This document shows, piece after piece, positions 3,392-37,116 of a DNA stretch of 64,000 bases (positions are counted from its first letter, which is position 1; the number at the start of each line of letters is the position of its first letter). The position numbers were made by a program, and so were the translations under genes. The stretch comes from a virus, in IMG/VR virus record IMGVR_UViG_3300045988_054118, positions 1 through 64,000 of that record, one strand, 5' to 3'. The notes under the pieces were generated by a model that saw only the letters and a list, made by a program, of their open reading frames with translations, ran no database searches and was not told the origin of the DNA.

Positions 3392-3970
3392 TTATTTCTT
3401 TTTCATTTTGGAACCGCACTTATTGACTTTCATTTTGGAACCACAAGCGTCTTTCTTAGCATATTGTTTTCTGTCAGGAACCCATTTTCCTTCCTGGAAA
3501 TTACCCTTATGTCCCTTATTGGCCATAGTTTCCTAATCATTGTATTTATTGATTGATATAGAATCTCTTGAGGCTTCGTCTCTAGCAGATTTCATATCTT
3601 TCTTATACTAAGCTCTTCCAGCCTTAAATTTATCAACTTCATTAGCTTTCTTAGTAACTTTAGTTCCTTTTTGTGCTTTCTGGCAAGCTTTACAGATTCT
3701 ACCGCCTTGCTTAAAATATACAAGCTCTTCTCCTTCTGGACATACTCCTTTTAGCTTCTTATAATACTCAAGCTTAGCTCCAAGCCTAGCCATTACTCCT
3801 CCTTGCATTTTCTGCATAAATTCCTGATACTTAGCTTTAATGCCGTCTTCTCCTAATTGTTCAGCATAAGCTTGTAAATCCTATTCAGATTGTACTTGTA
3901 TTCCCTACGCAGCGGCATCTTGTATTAGATATGCCATAAATGCTTTTTGTAATTCTTCCTAGTTAGCCAT
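3392..3970 (-). CDS. Hypothetical Lys/Cys-rich protein, recoded (in-frame TAG); includes track ORF 3608..3817
   Basis: ATG at 3968-3970 (overlaps the upstream TAA as TAATG), TAA at 3392-3394. Track ORF 3608..3817 ends at a TAG and the reading continues protein-like through it (…KFKAGRA-Q-YKKDMKSARDE…CGSKMKVNKCGSKMKKK). Confidence 0.55.
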
Positions 3971-4194
3971 TACTCTTCTACTTTAATTAAATCCTTAGTA
4001 TTAAACACTGCTTCCTACATAAGTCCGGAATCAGTAAACCATCTACATCTTAATCCTCGTAATCCTTGGTTATCTTTAAATAAAGCTGCTTCTCTTCTTA
4101 GAACAAGCATAACTGGAGAATGCATTACTTTACACTACCGTAAAGTAACACAATCCCCAGGCTTAAAATAAACTTTTTCATCAATTGTTTCCAT
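3970..4194 (-). CDS. Hypothetical small protein, recoded (2 in-frame TAG)
   Basis: ATG 4192-4194 to TAA 3970-3972; METIDEKVYFKPGDCVTLRQCKVMHSPVML…. Confidence 0.45.
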
Positions 4195-8347: not shown

Positions 8348-8364
8348 AACTATTAATTTTGGCG

Positions 8365-8436
8365 TTGCCCTACTAGGATTCGAACCCAGACTAAATGATT
8401 TAGAGTCATCTGTGCTGACCATTACACCATAGGGCA
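8365..8436 (-). tRNA. Suppressor tRNA, anticodon CUA (reads UAG); Gln-tRNA-derived
   Basis: Cloverleaf read on the minus strand: acceptor TGCCCTA/TAGGGCA, D-stem GTGT/GCAC, anticodon stem GATGA/TCATT with loop CTCTAAA (anticodon CTA), T-arm CTGGG-TTCGAAT-CCTAG. The architecture is nearly identical to the tRNA-Gln(TTG) at 23373..23444. Confidence 0.8.
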
Positions 8437-9741: not shown

Positions 9742-10704
9742 AAGATTGGGGAGAAATCCCCTTTCTTTTACATACAAATAAGCTTTGTAGAAATGGACAT
9801 AAGAAAAAAGTTTAAGACTATAAAGTGTTTGTATAATTGGGGCATAATCTATGACCCAAAGACTAATGAAAAGTTAAATTTCAAAGCCAAACGTGTTTAT
9901 TGCGTAACTTCTTGGGCTTGGATTATGACCTATCAAAAGTCAGAAGAAGATATCCCTGAGATAATTAGGATAGTCTTTGTAGATTAACTCTAAGGTACTA
10001 TGAGTTTTAAATAAAGTGCCCAACATGAACCCCATCATCGGAACGTTGGTTAACGGGGAAAACAACAAATCAAATCAAAGTTTTTGTTTAGTTTTAGGAT
10101 TATATCTGGCAGCTTGGAAAGACAAGCAAAATCTTTATACCTATCTGCTAATAGGTTTAGTGTTCAACGCGAAAATTCGGTAAAGGAGAGAAATTGTCCA
10201 CTAAAAAGACCCTCAATTTCCGGACTTTTTCCGATTTTCAAAAAATCCGCCAGAGTAGGAGTTATATAGCTCACACTCTCTATGGACATTATTTAGTATT
10301 TAGCCTATAAAAAGGCAACAAAAAGCGAGGCTACGCAGAAGAGCCTAACACCAAAAATAACTGCTACAAATTCTATGTGCATATTCGCAAACTTGAGCAC
10401 TATAGGATTTAGGTTGAGCTGTAAGGATTGGTCACTTATAGCAATATTATGAGTACTGCTGATATGTCAGTGACCGTACATATCACATATAAAATATGTT
10501 ATACAATTATGTTAGAAGTTGCCAGGTCTAAGAAGCCTGATTAAAATCTCTAGATAGTAAGAGAGAACCTCATAAGGGTTCATTTTCCATCTCGAATCTA
10601 TTCGCAAGTTTTGAGATTAGCTACCTCAGAATTTAGTGAACGTTGTATGTCTGGAAAACATACTAAATAATCTCCTATCTTATACTAGTTGTCAAGATAG
10701 GATT

Positions 10705-10775
10705 TCCCCATTAGTATAATGCTATTGCGCCTTCCTCTAAAGAAGGAGATTCTGGTTCGAGTCCAGAATGGGGGA
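10705..10775 (+). tRNA. Second tRNA-like gene with anticodon CUA (anticodon loop CTCTAAA); D-arm non-canonical
   Basis: Acceptor TCCCCAT/ATGGGGG (one G·U pair), anticodon stem CCTTC/GAAGG with loop CTCTAAA, T-arm TCTGG-TTCGAGT-CCAGA, discriminator A. Confidence 0.55.
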
Positions 10776-11192
10776 ACTTGGTATTTGAAGACTACAACTA
10801 CTTGTAGACTCTGTTGCAGTTAAAGATTATAATGGGTACGCCCTGAGACTAATGCAGAGCATCTCTTATGAATAGAGGTGTCTTATCGTGAGATAAGGCA
10901 AAGTATTGTGAGATTGAGAGAATTACTAGCTAAAATGTTAGAAGAAGACCCAGATTCAAGTAGCAATATCTACAAAGAAATATGGGGAGCTTATACTGCT
11001 GGGATGAACTCCTTGCTCGAGTAGCAACAATTCCAAGCTTGGTGAATTAAAACTAGCTAACCTAATTACTCTTTATAAGGTTGAGAATGTAAAAAGAGAA
11101 TTGGAATGGTAAGCCCATCTCCCTTCGTCCTTTGCTGGTTTAGAAGTGAAACAGAAACCAGCACTTTTTAGTAACTTATAAACTTTTATAAT

Positions 11193-27451: not shown

Positions 27452-27532
27452 TCCGATTTAGCTCAGTCTGGTTAGAGCGTCCGCATCCAAAACATCAGCG
27501 GGAGGTCAGGGGTTCAAATCCTTTAATCGGAA
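27452..27532 (+). tRNA. Aberrant tRNA: canonical acceptor, D and T arms but a 13-nt anticodon loop (TCCGC-ATCCAAAACATCA-GCGGG)
   Basis: Acceptor TCCGATT/AATCGGA, D-arm GCTC-AGTCTGGTTA-GAGC, T-arm AGGGG-TTCAAAT-CCTTT. The only anticodon stem that can form leaves a 13-nt loop. Confidence 0.45.
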
Positions 27533-33460: not shown

Positions 33461-33651
33461 CTAATTTAATATCAATAATATGGAAAGATATATAGAAGAA
33501 CTTATTGAAATATATAGAAAAAATACTCTAAAGTCAGATGAAGAATTAGAATCTCTGAAGAGTTTACTTAGAAATGTTCATCGTGATGGATTTATAGCAG
33601 GAGAAGAATCAATAATTAATGTTGTGGATAAACTAACAAAACGTAACTAAT

Positions 33652-34563
33652 ATGAACAGTGTATTTTTTGGAAATGAAGGGTTGACTTCTACGTCAGCAA
33701 ACTTCTATGCGAACATCGCACAAGAAATGATTCAAGCAGCACAGGAACGCTTGAATAATGTGAAATTCTTTCAAGTATCTGTAGCCTCTATCGGTGGAGG
33801 AGAAAAGCAGTTAATGACAGTAGGACAAAAGTCCCTTGACTTTATAAAAGATGATTTGGAAAAGGTCGCTGCCATGAATAGTTTTTGTGCTTGGGTACGA
33901 GAAGCTATCAAAGAGAAAGAAGGAATGATTGGCAAAGTATCTGCTACTATGCTTGATGATTGGGCAGAAAGTCAGGGAATAGGACTGCCAGAGCAGCCTA
34001 AGTATCCAGAAGCTCTACCTTCTCCGACTGAAGAGACTATCATAAAGTCGTGGGATATTAACAAGAGAAATAAATTCCTAAGATTAGAGGCGTTTGCTTC
34101 TACCTATGGAAAGTATATTCATCCAAAAGGAGCCTTTAGTAAGGCACGAAAAGAAGTTCATGCAGCTGAGAATTGTCCTATCTATAAGGAAGGCTCTGGA
34201 AGAGATTTAATTCTCTACTACCAAGACCCTACCATCGAAGTAGAAAAAGTGGACAATATGTTCATGTCTCTTCAAGATACCTATCGTTCTTACGAGAAGG
34301 AGTTAAATGCTCTTAAAGCTGAGCTTAAGGAGGAGGTTAATAAACTTTCTAACACTCAAGAACAAGAGTATCGTGAGAAAATGGCTGAATTTAAAGCAAA
34401 CTACGACAAATATACCTCCGAATTAGGAGAGTTGAGAAGTCGTTTCAATAGTTGGAAAACTTCTGAAATGGAACGTATTTCCAAACTAAAAATCGCTTTG
34501 CCTAAGAATCTTTTAGATATTTTCGAAGAGATTAGGAGACAAGGCGACTCTTCCTCTAAGTAA
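33652..34563 (+). CDS. Hypothetical protein with a coiled-coil C-terminus
   Basis: ORF of 303 aa. Confidence 0.5.
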   Translation: MNSVFFGNEGLTSTSANFYANIAQEMIQAAQERLNNVKFFQVSVASIGGGEKQLMTVGQKSLDFIKDDLEKVAAMNSFCAWVREAIKEKEGMIGKVSATMLDDWAESQGIGLPEQPKYPEALPSPTEETIIKSWDINKRNKFLRLEAFASTYGKYIHPKGAFSKARKEVHAAENCPIYKEGSGRDLILYYQDPTIEVEKVDNMFMSLQDTYRSYEKELNALKAELKEEVNKLSNTQEQEYREKMAEFKANYDKYTSELGELRSRFNSWKTSEMERISKLKIALPKNLLDIFEEIRRQGDSSSK

Positions 34564-35037
34564 TTAGAGGACTTCCGTAGGAAGCTAACATAACATACTT
34601 AACAGGAATAATTATGAACAGTATATTTTTAAATCCGCATGGATTTAATCTTTATTCGCTGGCTACACAAAAATTTACAACCCACTCTCTAATTGAGAGT
34701 CTTTGTCTTAGTCTTTGTTAGTGTAGCTAGGTCTTTGACTACGGCTTCATCTTTGCCTGCGCGTTAGCTTCCTACATAGCTCGTCAACCACGTGTTGAAG
34801 GAGTTACGGAATCCCTTCGGGATTCTAGCCTTTTGCTTCAGTTACAAGTAATCTTTAAACTTGGTGACTATTATCCCAAATTCTCAACAAGATGAAGAGG
34901 GAGGTTGACCAACCTAATAATGGTACAAGCTCTTCGGAGTGATAGGAGTGGGGAAAGTATCTGGTGAAGCACAGATACTGGAACCACTCTTTTTTTTGAT
35001 AGATAAAATGATTATTAACTAATTTAAATTAAGAAAA
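34564..35037 (+). ncRNA. Candidate structured non-coding RNA (~470 nt intergenic): multiple hairpins including UUCG tetraloops, ending in a terminator-like hairpin plus T8 tract
   Basis: No ORF. Hairpins: GCTACAC…GTGTAGC, CTCTC-TAATT-GAGAG, TCAAC-CACGT-GTTGA, GAATCCC-TTCG-GGGATTC, CTC-TTCG-GAG, and AGTATCTG-GTGAAGCA-CAGATACT followed by GAACCACTC-TTTTTTTT (34976-34998). Confidence 0.45.
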
Positions 35038-35211
35038 ATGAAGAAAGTACTATTGCTTTTCGGAATGGTTGCACTGATGTCTGCTTGTGCAGGTAATACA
35101 AAAACTCAGGCTCCAGAAAACGATTCTATCGCAATCGTTAAAGAAGTTGCTGACACAATGAGTGTAGACACTCTAGGTGTGGATAGTCTTGTAATTGATA
35201 GTATTCAGTAA
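35038..35211 (+). CDS. Small lipoprotein (57 aa); not in the ORF track
   Basis: MKKVLLLFGMVALMSAC-AGNTKTQAP… : signal peptide with a lipobox-like …MSAC cysteine. Confidence 0.5.
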   Translation: MKKVLLLFGMVALMSACAGNTKTQAPENDSIAIVKEVADTMSVDTLGVDSLVIDSIQ

Positions 35212-35879: not shown

Positions 35880-36285
35880 ATTTAATCAGATTTTTTGTGA
35901 GGATTTGAAAGATGATTTCGAGGAAGCTGGTAGGCATGAGAGAAATTTCGAGTTAGACGAGTTTATTCAGAAGGATTTAAGTAGAGCATTTGCGTTTGGT
36001 TATTGTCATTTAGACTGGATAAAGGAGAAAATGTGGTTTCCTGTTCCTATTAGGAAGGCTTTACGGCATTTAGGAGACGACCTAGAAGATTTTGCTCCTC
36101 AGCTTAAATGGCTTAACGAAAAATATGGTGCTATAGGAAAGAGAGTTAGAATTGTTGATTACGCAAACTATATTTTAGATAATATATTTTGTGACAATCA
36201 AGACGATTTGCTAAAGATAGCAATATTACTCGGAACTAACATGAGAGTAAATACTGCTGATGAGCAGGCTAGAAGTGTTCACTGA
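35872..36285 (+). CDS. Hypothetical protein
   Basis: ORF of 137 aa. Confidence 0.45.
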   Translation: MIEFNQIFCEDLKDDFEEAGRHERNFELDEFIQKDLSRAFAFGYCHLDWIKEKMWFPVPIRKALRHLGDDLEDFAPQLKWLNEKYGAIGKRVRIVDYANYILDNIFCDNQDDLLKIAILLGTNMRVNTADEQARSVH

Positions 36286-36703
36286 TGGAGCTTTTAGCTC
36301 GTCTAGAGACACAGGAGGAGTAGGAGTTGTATTCGTAATTGATGGGGAAAAAGCCTATGAATTTAGTAAGATGATTCCTAATACTACTAATAATAAATGT
36401 GAGTTGTTAGCAGTAATTTATGCTCTAAATGCAGTAAGTCGTAAAATCGAATCTCTGACTATTTACTCAGATTCTCAGTACGTCATAGGATGTGCTACTA
36501 AAGGATGGAAAAGAAAGAAGAATATAGAGTTATGGAATTTATACGACAAGGTCTTAAATAAGGCAAAGCAATTTTGTCCTAATATAGATTTTTGTTGGGT
36601 GAAAGGACATACTTCAAGTTCAGACTTCTTTTCTCAGATGAATAATCTCGCAGATAAATTAGCAGTTGAAGCAAGTCAGGAATATGAAACTAAGAAAGAA
36701 TAA
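36260..36703 (+). CDS. rnhA: Ribonuclease H (RNase HI-like)
   Basis: Catalytic pattern TDGAF…ELLAVIYAL…YSDSQYVI…WVKGHTSS…NNLADKLA. Confidence 0.75.
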   Translation: MSRLEVFTDGAFSSSRDTGGVGVVFVIDGEKAYEFSKMIPNTTNNKCELLAVIYALNAVSRKIESLTIYSDSQYVIGCATKGWKRKKNIELWNLYDKVLNKAKQFCPNIDFCWVKGHTSSSDFFSQMNNLADKLAVEASQEYETKKE

Positions 36704-37100
36704 GAATAAGAAACTTATCAAAGAAGCTATGAAGTTTTATCCATTCGATTATGGATTTGTTCTCTCTTTAGAGAAACAAGCCCTAATTAGAATGTATGAA
36801 TACTTTAAGGTATCTAGAATTGCGGAAGGCAATGAACGTGTCGAAAAAGAGCTAAATCTAGCACTAAAGCTATTAGATATTGTGCTAGAAATAGATTCTG
36901 CGTATCACCATGACTTTAGACCTGGGTCAAAGGGATTTGTAGATAGACACATAAATACTAAAAATTGGAATCGATTCCACCCTAAGGCTGCTGATCTCGA
37001 TTGGAATACCCCAATCCTTAAAGATTATCTGAGAAGAGAAAAAGCCTGGTACTTATACAACAAACTAAAGTTTGAACGTATGAGGTCTTGGTGGGATTAA
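36666..37100 (+). CDS. Hypothetical protein
   Basis: ORF of 144 aa. Confidence 0.45.
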   Translation: MKQVRNMKLRKNKNKKLIKEAMKFYPFDYGFVLSLEKQALIRMYEYFKVSRIAEGNERVEKELNLALKLLDIVLEIDSAYHHDFRPGSKGFVDRHINTKNWNRFHPKAADLDWNTPILKDYLRREKAWYLYNKLKFERMRSWWD

Positions 37101-37116
37101 TTTAATTAATAGAATT

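Follow-up and report, generated by a model that had tools for sequence, protein, structure and literature searches.

A bipartite structured non-coding RNA predicted downstream of a coiled-coil protein gene in Zeta-group crAss-like phages

Comparison of about 100 related loci indicates that positions ~34552-34997 (+ strand) of the 64-kb stretch of phage DNA analyzed here, referred to below as the window, encode a previously undescribed bipartite structured non-coding RNA (ncRNA) of Zeta-group crAss-like phages. The RNA is conserved among phages of a large group that are very abundant in the human gut, and the pattern of substitutions makes it very probable that it represents a genuine, transcribed family of structured ncRNAs. 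It is composed of a 5′ module (module 1, 34575-34777) and a 3′ module (module 2, 34832-34997), of which the former appears to be old and the latter a more recent domain under extreme sequence constraint. Hardly anything is known of the non-coding RNAs of these phages.

Results

Extent, strand and coding capacity of the element

The features of the element are collected in Table 1. A preliminary description of the window had interpreted the interval 34564-35037 as an ORF-free stretch containing a candidate structured ncRNA. The interval is indeed free of substantial ORFs, as the longest found with the standard code is only 35-38 aa, and the structured-RNA reading is borne out by strong covariation among relatives in both modules, as detailed below, and by folding energy. 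The minimum free energy was -133.3 kcal/mol, versus -106.8 ± 6.2 kcal/mol in 100 shuffles (z = -4.29), none of which equaled it. Since the minus strand gave a similar z score (-4.16), folding energy alone does not allow a choice of strand. The preference for G-U over A-C appositions in helices (81:20), together with the U-tracts that follow H5 or P1, supports an RNA from the + strand. What had been treated as one undifferentiated, hairpin-dense RNA is instead two evolutionarily separable modules accompanied by clade-specific hairpins.

Table 1. Coordinates of the upstream gene and of the predicted RNA features, given as positions in the 64-kb window.
Feature	Position	Strand	Sequence or remark
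Upstream gene	33652..34563	+	303 aa, mostly a long coiled coil; only the last codons belong to the RNA
P0 hairpin	34552..34571	+	TCCTCTAA-GTAA-TTAGAGGA; self inverted repeat in the sequence
P1, 5′ strand	34577..34589	+	GTAGGAAGCTAAC; purine-rich; perfect 13-bp complement of 34763-34775
Pa hairpin	34631..34646	+	AAATCC-GCAT-GGATTT; variable region between P1 and P2, outside the universal core
P2, 5′ strand	34659..34668	+	CTGGCTACAC; conserved AUUSGCUG just before
P2a hairpin	34684..34700	+	ACTCTC-TAATT-GAGAGT; inside P2; clade-dependent length
Repeats	34699..34717	+	GTCTTTG / GTCTTAG / GTCTTTG; three head-to-tail, hexamer-phased, predicted single-stranded, 3′ side of P2 interior
P2, 3′ strand	34721..34730	+	GTGTAGCTAG; covariation
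P2-P1 junction	34731..34762	+	near-invariant GUCUUUG right after P2, more (Y)CUUNG units, GCCUGCGC before P1
P1, 3′ strand	34763..34775	+	GTTAGCTTCCTAC; pyrimidine-rich; complement of 34577-34589
P3	34777..34806	+	TAGCTC-G-TCAAC-CACGT-GTTGA-AG-GAGTTA; clade-specific; compensatory U-A to C-G change
P4	34808..34826	+	GGAATCCC-TTC-GGGATTCT; clade-specific, variable; 3-4 pairs changed on both sides
Pseudoknot, 5′ strand	34834..34839	+	TGCTTC; pairs with 34966-34971; GUGCUUC in most relatives
H1	34841..34868	+	GUUACAAGU-[AAUCUUUAA]-ACUUGGUGAC; conserved CYUUAA loop
Core	34869..34907	+	UAUUAUCCCAAAUUCUCAACAAGAUGAAGAGGGAGGUUG; almost invariant columns
H3	34908..34924	+	ACCA-[ACCUAAUAA]-UGGU; 4-bp stem, conserved 9-nt loop
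H4	34929..34940	+	GCUC-UUCG-GAGU; covaries, e.g. GGUUC/GAAU, GACC/GGU
H5	34945..34997	+	two-tier terminal hairpin; outer stem 34945-51/34984-90, inner stem 34956-62/34973-79

Linkage to the coiled-coil gene

The gene for the coiled-coil protein directly precedes the RNA in nearly every relative examined. A model of the protein contained coiled coil only and no recognisable RNA-binding fold. A total of 469 protein homologues open the way to hundreds of loci. The two are joined by a stop-codon hairpin, P0, which was not in the preliminary description: the final sense codons of the coiled-coil gene supply its 5′ arm, and its loop contains the TAA stop (34561-34563). Near clades keep P0 with a compensatory C-G to U-A change, and in the clade at 50-57% identity it takes the form ACCUCU...AGAGGU. 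No promoter was found; the TAnnTTTG motif is absent just upstream, and a sigma-70-type scan is not meaningful for Bacteroidota.

The 5′ module

With few exceptions among the relatives examined, the most distant of which share about 35% protein identity, module 1 lies 11-87 nt 3′ of the coiled-coil gene. In its alignment 94.7% of cells were paired, and 20 of 25 pairs (89 cells) carried compensatory changes, a level reached in 0 of 500 shuffles; controls in which the structure was slid along the alignment gave 29-44% paired. These cell counts overstate the number of independent events, as the alignments draw on related sequences from about 6-8 clades. The long-range closing helix P1, of 13-17 bp, perfect over 13 bp in the window and also new relative to the preliminary description, showed changes on both sides in 13 of 15 pairs. 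Helices of 10-17 bp with quite different sequences were present at the P1 position in 21 of the 25 sequences scanned, and a 22nd (L131) was located by hand. In relatives that have no 3′ module (L137, L143, L151 and L153), a U-tract follows the 3′ strand of P1.

The 7-bp inverted repeat GCTACAC/GTGTAGC of the preliminary description proved to be the core of P2, a helix of 10-13 bp in which 7 of 10 pairs were changed on both sides and 98.1% of cells were paired. A P2 built on CUG...CAG was found in most scanned clades, including the distant L136, L137, L143, L149 and L158, and in several loci it stood below the top-ranked stem. Pa is swapped for GAAATC..GATTTC or CAGATT..AATCTG in other clades.

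Tandem repeats, likewise absent from the preliminary description, occupy the segments between the helices. GUCUUWG has 21 matches window-wide, four of them in 34699-34737, and one junction unit, TCTTTG, lies at 34750-34755. All 39 of 39 distinct 5′ modules contain 2-5 copies of YCUUNG in a 6-nt register, and copy number shifts by 6-nt steps among close relatives. The GGTCTT..G columns were invariant in alignments of 17 and of 23 sequences. In the L158 clade, module 1 sits 15 nt upstream of a tRNA gene, an arrangement that is consistent with a processed, stable RNA; an extra ORF-free stretch in L158 gave no Rfam match.

Hairpins between the modules

The hairpins in 34777-34826 are clade-specific insertions. 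P3 is missing in the 50-57% clade, where P1 adjoins the 3′ module, and the P4 of L132/L047 hosts an insertion of ~280 nt. All six hairpins that had been listed for the region are present in the sequence, including CTCTC-TAATT-GAGAG (34685-34699), TCAAC-CACGT-GTTGA (34784-34798) and CTC-TTCG-GAG (34930-34939), and two of them need redrawing. The hairpin given as GAATCCC-UUCG-GGGAUUC, with a classic UUCG tetraloop, exists at 34809-34825 but actually reads GAATCCC-TTC-GGGATTC; rather than a canonical 7-bp C(UUCG)G hairpin, it has either a 7-bp stem closing a loop of 3 nt or a 6-bp stem closing CUUCG. Similarly, the T8 tract placed within 34976-34998 is there (34990-34997), whereas the single 8-bp hairpin assigned to it gives way to a two-tier hairpin at 34945-34990.

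The 3′ module

Module 2 is confined to a sub-clade, in which its nucleotide identity is 76-98% versus 63-76% for the adjacent coding sequence. Its alignment had 92.1% of cells paired and compensatory changes in 18 of 38 pairs, the pseudoknot included. The pseudoknot, a further addition to the preliminary description, takes the forms GUAUGUC/GACAUAC in L126 and L130 and GUACGUC/GACGUAC in L128; 5 of its 7 pairs showed compensatory changes and 97.3% of cells were paired. In H1, CAAGU/ACUUG is exchanged for CUAGG/CCUAG, CUAAG/CUUAG or CAGGU/ACCUG in relatives, and the two top pairs of H3 occur as 4 and 3 different standard pair types. Candidate helices in the core (CCC/GGG, UCAAC/GUUGA and UUCA/UGAA) are compatible with the alignment and showed no covariation. 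RNAalifold applied to a first, shallow alignment mispredicted this module, for example with UUGCUU/AAGUAA, and was corrected by deeper sequences.

The loop of H5 holds the 3′ strand of the pseudoknot, GAAGCA (34966-34971), and U8 (34990-34997) follows the hairpin. This G+C-rich hairpin (34945-34990) with its T8, conserved with covariation, has the form of a predicted intrinsic terminator; a simple terminator scanner missed it because the stem is long and two-tier. The inner stem of H5 had both-side changes in 4 of 7 pairs, and the outer stem, poorly aligned by MAFFT, is present in all relatives.

Distribution and database searches

A covariance model of module 1 (R2) gave 49 matches in 60 sources. 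No locus had more than one, and each match lay on the + strand, 11-87 nt past the stop codon of the coiled-coil homologue. The model reached the 35%-identity clade at E ~1e-7 and also matched a 98.6-kb rodent-faeces phage. The corresponding model of module 2 (R1) matched 21 of the 62 sources of the main search plus 4 loci fetched later, all of them in relatives with roughly 50% or more protein identity. In IMG/VR, module 2 occurs once per genome in 47 contigs, and a degenerate pattern for its core retrieved the same 47 contigs as the exact pattern, with no stand-alone or second copies. Within the window itself (the genome is ~190 kb), no part of the region recurs, and nothing shows extended complementarity to it, the best matches being 11-13 nt. 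The downstream gene varies between clades while the upstream gene is constant.

Rfam 15 (4227 models, among them 6S, tmRNA, RNase P, SRP, group I/II introns, ribozymes, GOLLD, ROOL, RAGATH, YrlA and Bacteroides sRNAs) gave no match in 34564-35000 when gathering thresholds were applied. A second scan, at E≤10 and with relaxed filters, again yielded no family match, only two sub-threshold snoRNA noise matches at 35003-35186. Suggestions in the preliminary description of a 6S-like RNA, a degenerate intron or a ribozyme thus found no counterpart among the models, and the same was true of tmRNA. A RAGATH-14 RNA is present elsewhere in the window, and no mention of it was found in papers. We found no published or annotated description of the RNA reported here: it is unmentioned in the crAss-like genomics paper and in the Zeta paper, its core sequences are absent from the searchable supplements (first 200 of 408 files) of a human-microbiome structured-RNA catalogue, and GenBank annotates a hypothetical CDS over one homologue. 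A scan of 185,579 bacterial and archaeal genomes for three copies of GTCTTWG returned 120 matches in unrelated taxa and was not informative. The multi-copy matches are tandem hexamer arrays, which we take to be dipeptide-coding repeats; R2 found only weak matches on them, none in Bacteroidota loci.

Discussion

We consider it probable that the element is a bipartite RNA that most likely serves as a stable, repeat-displaying scaffold or decoy. The RNA would be made by read-through of the upstream gene's transcript, end at U8 and accumulate as a stable species, possibly after processing near P0. P1 and P2 would hold open single-stranded segments carrying two to five hexamer-phased YCUUNG units (GUCUUUG/GUCUUAG), and module 1 would thereby offer phased repeats to an oligomeric single-strand RNA-binding protein, recognized on the principle of TRAP, HutP or CsrB-type systems. 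The partner could be a host factor, with the RNA acting as a decoy or sponge, or the co-encoded coiled-coil protein, with the RNA acting as a ribonucleoprotein scaffold. Module 2, a domain closed by the pseudoknot between its 5′ edge and the terminal-hairpin loop and ending in a U-tract, may provide a compact 3′ end that resists nucleases, as well as a second surface for highly specific interactions. This repeat-platform mechanism is advanced tentatively, as the repeats could equally be base-pairing seeds or a flexible pyrimidine linker with drifting copy number.

Several readings place the function of the element in the expression of other genes. A cis-acting 3′-UTR or attenuator, in which P1 with its U-tract or H5 with U8 is a conditional terminator whose formation is decided by a repeat-binding protein, is unlikely, though its probability is appreciable; it would set read-through into the lipoprotein to RNase H genes, or the stability of the upstream mRNA, in the manner of TRAP, HutP or PyrR. 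The repeats lie directly 5′ of the 3′ strand of P1, their U(U/A)G triplets recur at 6-nt spacing, U-runs follow P1 in stand-alone forms, and through P0 the element is linked to the stop codon of the preceding gene. In addition, internal terminators must be regulated or bypassed here because the genes from 9.3 to 64 kb are all co-oriented, in a block with terminator-like hairpins. A terminator stem around about 170 nt would be atypical, however, and module 2, which is about 165 nt, pseudoknotted and almost invariant, goes far beyond the needs of termination; moreover, it is the upstream rather than the downstream gene that is constant, and in one clade tRNA genes come next. An improbable alternative is a base-pairing riboregulator whose UCUUUG/UCUUAG seeds pair with CAAAGA/CUAAGA in translation-initiation regions of host or phage mRNAs. 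The repeats are conserved and predicted to be single-stranded, P1 itself pairs a purine-rich with a pyrimidine-rich strand, and there is precedent in Bacteroides sRNAs of the GibS/FopS type, which act through single-stranded 5′ seeds on translation-initiation regions (PMC11697453). Nevertheless, six-nucleotide seeds are too short for specificity, the longest complementarity in the window is the 11-13 nt noted above, and 6-nt phasing with copy-number variation suits protein binding better. There is still less to be said for processive antitermination, in which GUCUUUG/GUCUUAG would be BoxA-like sites that recruit NusB/S10 to modify RNA polymerase, or titrate these factors. BoxA reads UGCUCUUUA in rrn operons and CGCUCUUA in lambda; the UCUUU/UCUUA core resembles it, and the element falls within the 55-kb co-oriented transcription block. 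The likeness, to BoxA sequences of rrn and lambda, is a 5-nt, low-complexity match, and the GC of GCUCUU is lost; the repeats also have no BoxB-like partner, and the element stands at a gene 3′ end, far from any identified promoter.

It is very improbable that the element acts at the level of DNA, whether as a set of origin iterons, as a signal for single-strand initiation or as a packaging site. On this view the inverted repeats would form hairpins in DNA, and the hexamers would be iterons bound by a protein. Tandem short direct repeats do lie between inverted repeats, GC and AT skew dip locally at 34.5-34.9 kb, and there is an RNase H gene nearby (36260-36703 in the window; 0-4 genes downstream in several relatives), a possible hint of replication primed by transcripts. 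On the other hand, the 81:20 ratio of G-U (G-T) to A-C argues that only one strand is under pairing constraint, the pseudoknot and U-tract terminators are features of RNA, cumulative GC skew has no extremum here, a pyrimidine-rich RNA is poorly suited to a persistent R-loop, and the RNase H synteny may reflect only collinear genomes. The chance is equally slim that the RNA is a self-splicing intron, degenerate or free-standing, or a ribozyme that cleaves itself. Zeta crAss-like phages are an intron-rich lineage (PMC7886860), there is a RAGATH-14 RNA in the window, the 3′ module is pseudoknotted and highly conserved, and peripheral P4 tolerates a 280-nt insertion. Against this, the element lies outside any gene and without exon continuity, with the upstream stop conserved in all relatives and a clade-variable downstream gene that has its own start, and no group I or group II intron model (P3-P7-P8 or domain V catalytic core) or ribozyme model matched at E≤10. 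Finally, the region could encode a protein read through a reassigned stop (TAG, via CTA tRNAs) or a small conserved peptide. A 93-aa TAG-readthrough ORF (34614-34895, two in-frame TAG) deserves attention because the phage carries two CTA-anticodon tRNAs; TAG ends just 1 of 45 long ORFs, and a 16-codon ORF is present at 34893-34943. The start codon, frame and length of the 93-aa ORF are kept in no other clade, however, and across 12 representatives the longest ORFs differ in start, frame, strand, position and length from clade to clade in the standard, TAG-read and TGA-read codes alike, so that no recoded ORF, named at the outset as the finding that would count against an ncRNA, is conserved. 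The ATG of the 16-codon ORF is ACG in L113/L082, indels are not multiples of 3, helix substitutions are compensatory and neighboring + strand genes use the standard code. We regard the coding reading as essentially refuted already, with a negligible chance of being correct.

Returning to the scaffold or decoy interpretation, a bolder version, which we regard as rather doubtful, would make this RNA the first representative of a class of phage ribonucleoprotein or decoy RNAs not seen before. The hexamer-phased YCUUNG array would capture an oligomeric host factor or the coiled-coil protein, and the nearly invariant, pseudoknotted module 2 would adopt a new fold and have a specific activity of its own, for instance catalysis or the recognition of a ligand or protein. 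If true, this would represent RNA-based takeover or evasion of Bacteroidota hosts by abundant Zeta crAss-like gut phages. Conservation of the RNA extends from human-gut metagenomes to a phage of rodent faeces, and its place beside one gene is kept among relatives with only 35% protein identity. One module exceeds the proteins around it in conservation, a pattern that is usually the mark of an essential interaction. To our knowledge, CsrA, Hfq and ProQ are absent from Bacteroidota, and a phage RNA with phased repeats could therefore point to an unknown host RNA-binding machine. The two covariance models, R1 and R2, now make it possible to annotate an element that public records miscall as a hypothetical CDS.

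Comparison with known systems

Several known classes can be set aside as identities. 6S RNA is a rod of about 180 nt whose large central bubble mimics an open promoter, versus the multi-branched, covarying and pseudoknotted structure described here. A template repeat of a diversity-generating retroelement (DGR) is argued against by the single copy of the region in the 64-kb window and of the 3′ module in each contig. No reverse transcriptase was found among the scanned neighboring proteins, which bears both on that possibility and on a retron msr-msd or DRT-type ncRNA; the only nucleic-acid enzyme found nearby is the RNase H, although P1 resembles the a1/a2 flanking inverted repeat of retrons. 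Mimicry of the tRNA-Lys anticodon loop by the H1 loop or the repeats was rejected, since neither U33 nor the purine at position 37 is conserved.

The arrangement of the 5′ module recalls RNAs that present short motifs to proteins. As in CsrB/RsmZ, a short motif is repeated many times in exposed positions between helices, with a copy number that differs among relatives, and an intrinsic terminator lies at the end. The motif here, YCUUNG, is strictly phased at 6 nt along linear single strands, whereas CsrB/RsmZ present GGA in hairpin loops; the present RNA is also phage-encoded, tied to one protein gene and equipped with an extra pseudoknotted domain. With no match to a Csr/Rsm model, membership in that group of sponges is excluded, and the principle may nonetheless be shared. 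In the trp and hut leaders, phased (G/U)AG triplets are wrapped around the ring proteins TRAP and HutP. The U(U/A)G triplets of the phage RNA recur with a fixed 6-nt period directly 5′ of a terminator-forming strand. They differ in number (2-5 phased units versus 11 for TRAP) and in composition, UUG, which TRAP disfavors, being as common as UAG; they also lie between two long covarying helices at a gene 3′ end instead of in a 5′ leader. No homologue of TRAP or HutP, or other ring-shaped RNA-binding protein, was identified among the locus neighbors.

Other likenesses are of overall form. Stable RNAs are known from phage T4 (species 1 and 2), and GOLLD and ROOL are large phage-associated ncRNAs of unknown function (PMC12286853). 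With these the element shares a phage location, a length of several hundred nucleotides, many covarying helices, pseudoknots and tRNA-rich genome regions. It differs from GOLLD and ROOL in matching neither model, in its smaller size (about 200 + 165 nt), in its modular build, as the 5′ module also occurs alone, and in its strict linkage to a protein gene. The stand-alone 5′ module, with an end-to-end long helix, a pyrimidine-rich interior (UCUU) and a 3′ oligo-U, resembles Y RNA and bacterial YrlA, but a nearby Ro60/Rsr (TROVE) gene, a conserved bulged Ro-binding helix, a tRNA-like module and an Rfam match are all lacking. Both terminal structures, H5 with U8 and, in stand-alone forms, P1 with its U-run, look like Rho-independent terminators. 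H5 departs from this type in that its loop is conserved and pairs in a pseudoknot with a strand 130 nt upstream, and for this reason it would be an integral part of the folded domain, beyond any role as a terminator.

A gene-free region with strong predicted structure

The gap between the genes for a coiled-coil protein and a lipoprotein-like protein had been described in the preliminary description as free of ORFs and dense in hairpins. Both points held, as the standard code gives no ORF longer than 38 aa and every hairpin listed is present in the sequence. Two of the hairpins required redrawing: the presumed UUCG tetraloop hairpin (34809-34825) closes on a UUC triloop or, alternatively, a CUUCG pentaloop, and the 8-bp hairpin with a T8 tract is actually the two-tier hairpin H5, followed by T8. 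The predicted minimum free energy of the gap is -133.3 kcal/mol, as compared with -106.8 ± 6.2 for shuffled sequences (z = -4.29); the minus strand folds comparably (z = -4.16).

Table. Features of the RNA region and its flanks (window coordinates)
Feature	Positions	Strand	Description
Upstream gene	33652-34563	+	303-aa ORF, 5′ flank
Gap	34564-35037		between the flanking ORFs
P0	34552-34571	+	last sense codons of upstream gene paired with first non-coding bases
Module 1	34575-34777	+	5′ module
P1	34577-89 / 34763-75	+	GTAGGAAGCTAAC / GTTAGCTTCCTAC, perfect long-range helix
P2	34659-68 / 34721-30	+	inner 10-13 bp helix, CUG...CAG-based, GUCUUUG directly 3′
Repeats	34699-34717	+	GTCTTTG/GTCTTAG/GTCTTTG
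Repeat	34731-37	+	GTCTTTG
Repeat	34750-55	+	TCTTTG
P3	34777-34806		hairpin
P4	34808-34826		hairpin
Module 2	34832-34997	+	3′ module
H1	34841-49 / 34859-68	+	CYUUAA loop conserved
Core	34869-34907	+	39 nt, almost invariant
H3	34908-24	+	ACCA[ACCUAAUAA]UGGU
H4	34929-40	+	GCUC-UUCG-GAGU
H5	34945-90	+	two-tier terminal hairpin, then U8
Lipoprotein-like gene	35038-35211		57-aa ORF, 3′ flank

Both modules are conserved and covary

Searching the protein collection with the upstream protein gave 469 homologues of widely varying identity; the loci compared here comprised 44 from IMG/VR, 80 from metagenomes (down to 35% protein identity) and a few others. Where the protein is 72-78% identical, nucleotide identity across the intergenic region is 79-84%. 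Segment-wise comparison gave 76-98% identity for the 3′ module vs. 63-76% for adjacent coding sequence, and the 5′ module diverges at about the rate of coding sequence. At 59% protein identity, the related loci L039/L132 retain 92% identity in the 3′ part.

A stem search of 25 sequences recovered the architecture of module 1 independently in 21; P1 was found by hand in a 22nd (L131), and recovery was not clean in L142, L151 and L153. P1 measures 10-17 bp among relatives and differs widely in sequence by clade, reading GGTAAGAAATCAGC, GATGGGAATATTAAC, TAGGAGTAAAAGATAGT or CGTGAGTAGT elsewhere. When 17 natural sequences were aligned with MAFFT (A6), 94.7% of cells were paired and 20 of 25 pairs had changed on both sides, in 89 cells, although cell counts here and below overstate independent events because there are only about 6-8 independent clades. 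None of 500 shuffles reached these values, and sliding the partner by 1-3 columns left only 29-44% pairing. P0, whose loop contains the stop codon of the upstream gene, is likewise kept with compensatory changes. YCUUNG units in strict 6-nt register (2-5 per sequence) occupy single-stranded parts in 39/39 distinct members, and near relatives gain or lose entire 6-nt units.

A covariance model built from A6 (R2) gave 49 matches in 60 sources, with one match per locus, including a single one in the window, located 11-87 nt past the stop codon of the homologue. R2 extends to L158-L172, the clade at 35% identity (E about 1e-7), and also matches L136, L137, L143, L144, L148 and L149. A further match (3425-3628, E = 6e-5) lies 3′ of a 37%-identical homologue in PQ006092.1 (Bajarodcaudo virus 1; L293), showing that the protein-RNA pair also exists in a 98.6-kb rodent-faeces phage. 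The 58-aa "hypothetical protein" CDS annotated over this site (3418-3594) is probably a miscalled gene.

For module 2, an early RNAalifold structure was corrected by a deeper MAFFT alignment of 16 distinct natural sequences (A3). The H5 loop, GAAGCAC, is complementary to GUGCUUC at the module's 5′ edge (in the window UGCUUC, 34834-39), and this pseudoknot covaries in three versions: GUGCUUC/GAAGCAC, GUAUGUC/GACAUAC and GUACGUC/GACGUAC. Pairing, pseudoknot included, covers 92.1% of cells as against 32-45% in slid controls, and 18 of 38 pairs carry changes on both sides; for the pseudoknot alone, 97.3% of cells are paired and 5/7 pairs are compensatory. Three extra candidate helices within the invariant core are compatible with the sequences but unproven. 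All pair counts were taken from A3 and A6, whose sequences also yielded the structures, and not from the R1- or R2-based alignments, which are model-fitted. The module 2 model, R1, matched 21 of 62 main-search sources and 4 later loci, all with roughly at least 50% protein identity. Exact and degenerate core patterns found the same 47 IMG/VR contigs, with one copy per genome. Conservation and covariation in relatives thus support the proposal of a structured ncRNA for both modules.

R1 and R2 matches on the + strand only, an excess of G-U over A-C cells in helices (81 vs. 20) and the U-tract 3′ of the last helix point to an RNA transcribed in the same orientation as the surrounding genes. A scan for sigma-70-type sites yielded no assignable promoter, and sequence reading found no Bacteroides-type TAnnTTTG just upstream.

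The region is a composite

In the 50-57% clade P1 directly adjoins module 2, which identifies P3 and P4 as clade-specific insertions. Distant clades carry module 1 without module 2, and in L137, L143, L151 and L153 the stand-alone module is followed by a U-tract. By this comparison, the 470-nt region combines parts of different age: module 1 is old, P3 and P4 are young hairpins, and module 2 is younger than module 1, highly constrained, and the source of the predicted terminator.

P4 holds a ~280-nt insertion in one lineage (L132 ~3690-3950; = L047, IMGVR_UViG_3300030438_000078). Flanked by a ~30-bp inverted repeat and free of tRNAs according to ARAGORN, it may represent an expanded stem or an element resembling a MITE. 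In L158, of the 35%-identity clade, a tRNA gene lies 15 nt 3′ of module 1; the order is module 1, tRNA-Glu, a ~300-nt gap (3741-4043), tRNA-Asp and tRNA-Thr. The gap, with no ORF and no Rfam match, may hold another RNA in the slot occupied by module 2 in the window. An RNase H gene (PF00075) lies 0-4 small genes 3′ of the RNA in several relatives (window 36260-36703; L294 2740-3240; L295 3165-3584), and its called start in L294 overlaps the end of module 2; this proximity may reflect mere collinearity or a functional link.

Genomic setting

The phage carries 19-20 tRNA genes (ARAGORN 19, Rfam 20), two of them with a CTA anticodon, dispersed over 8.3-33.5 kb among early/middle genes; calls at 24204-24280 and 27452-27532 are from Rfam only and that at 22219-22307 from ARAGORN only. 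TAG serves as stop in 1 of 45 long ORFs on the + strand, as would fit its reassignment in other parts of the genome. Beyond 9.3 kb, every long ORF up to the window end is on the + strand and the standard code reads well. Near-identical contigs in IMG/VR and ENA put the genome of this human-gut phage at ~185-192 kb. Together with the tRNA count, CTA tRNAs and rare TAG stops, this size is in line with the Zeta group that Yutin et al. (PMC7886860) described among crAss-like phages.

GenBank MT836666.1 is 99% identical to the window and differs by clean indels: a 222-nt in-frame deletion in the 303-aa gene (window 34282-34503), deletions of 154 and 171 nt (36009-36162, 36938-37108), and an extra 725 nt 3′ of tRNA-Leu (L001 3162-3886). 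These could be micro-heterogeneity or assembly artefacts. A full-length RAGATH-14 (RF03145; 162 bits, E = 5e-30) occupies 10514-10676 (+), and a TAG-suppressor tRNA with CTA anticodon (10704-10777, +) begins 28 nt 3′ of it; the second CTA tRNA (8364-8436) is on the opposite, - strand. We know of no function for RAGATH-14 and found no mention of it in the literature searched.

Possible functions

Any explanation has to accommodate short phased repeats kept single-stranded by two long helices, near-constant linkage to one coiled-coil gene whose stop codon lies within P0, and, in one sub-clade, a pseudoknotted 3′ domain that is compact and scarcely varies. We tentatively favor a stable RNA that would display its units, phased at 6 nt, to an oligomeric protein that binds single-stranded RNA, with mechanism and partner both conjectural. 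Such an RNA would arise by read-through from the upstream gene, possibly with processing near P0, and could serve either as a host-factor decoy or as a scaffold for the co-encoded protein; module 2 would supply a protected 3′ end plus a second specific surface. A conditional terminator or 3′-UTR regulator is a somewhat unlikely alternative, and an RNA that base-pairs through multiple seeds is distinctly unlikely. BoxA-like recruitment of Nus factors seems improbable, and we give still less credence to a DNA-level element or, equally, to an intron or ribozyme remnant.

A recoded protein gene had to be tested since TAG readthrough gives a 93-aa ORF (34614-34895). Among 12 representatives read in the standard, TAG-read and TGA-read codes no ORF is conserved, in keeping with the preliminary description, and the longest shifts in frame, strand and location. 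Indels between relatives are not multiples of three, and one clade has lost the ATG of a 16-codon ORF located within module 2. Recoding was rejected on these grounds and is hardly credible. The start of the upstream gene (tATGAACAGTGTATTTTT, 33651-33668) recurs with 17/18 matches at 34613-34630, in the variable part of the RNA and in the window's own clade only; this repeat gives rise to the 93-aa ORF and to a spurious 35-aa ORF.

Relation to known RNAs

The RNA classes named at the outset (6S-like and others) found no backing, as an Rfam 15 scan matches no family in the region. Papers on crAss-like and Zeta phages mention no RNA at this locus, and the core sequences are absent from the searched part of a human-microbiome structured-RNA catalogue. 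The loop motifs that define CsrB-type sponge RNAs were also absent, and no GOLLD, ROOL or YrlA model matched; on these results we rate it as a new RNA family relative to Rfam 15, those papers and the searched part of the catalogue. Its architecture is nearest to that of repeat-displaying sponge RNAs, TRAP/HutP leaders, end-paired Y RNA-like RNAs and large phage RNAs without known function (GOLLD, ROOL, T4 species 1/2). In principle, the repeat display proposed for the favored stable RNA would work as in CsrB sponges or at TRAP/HutP sites.
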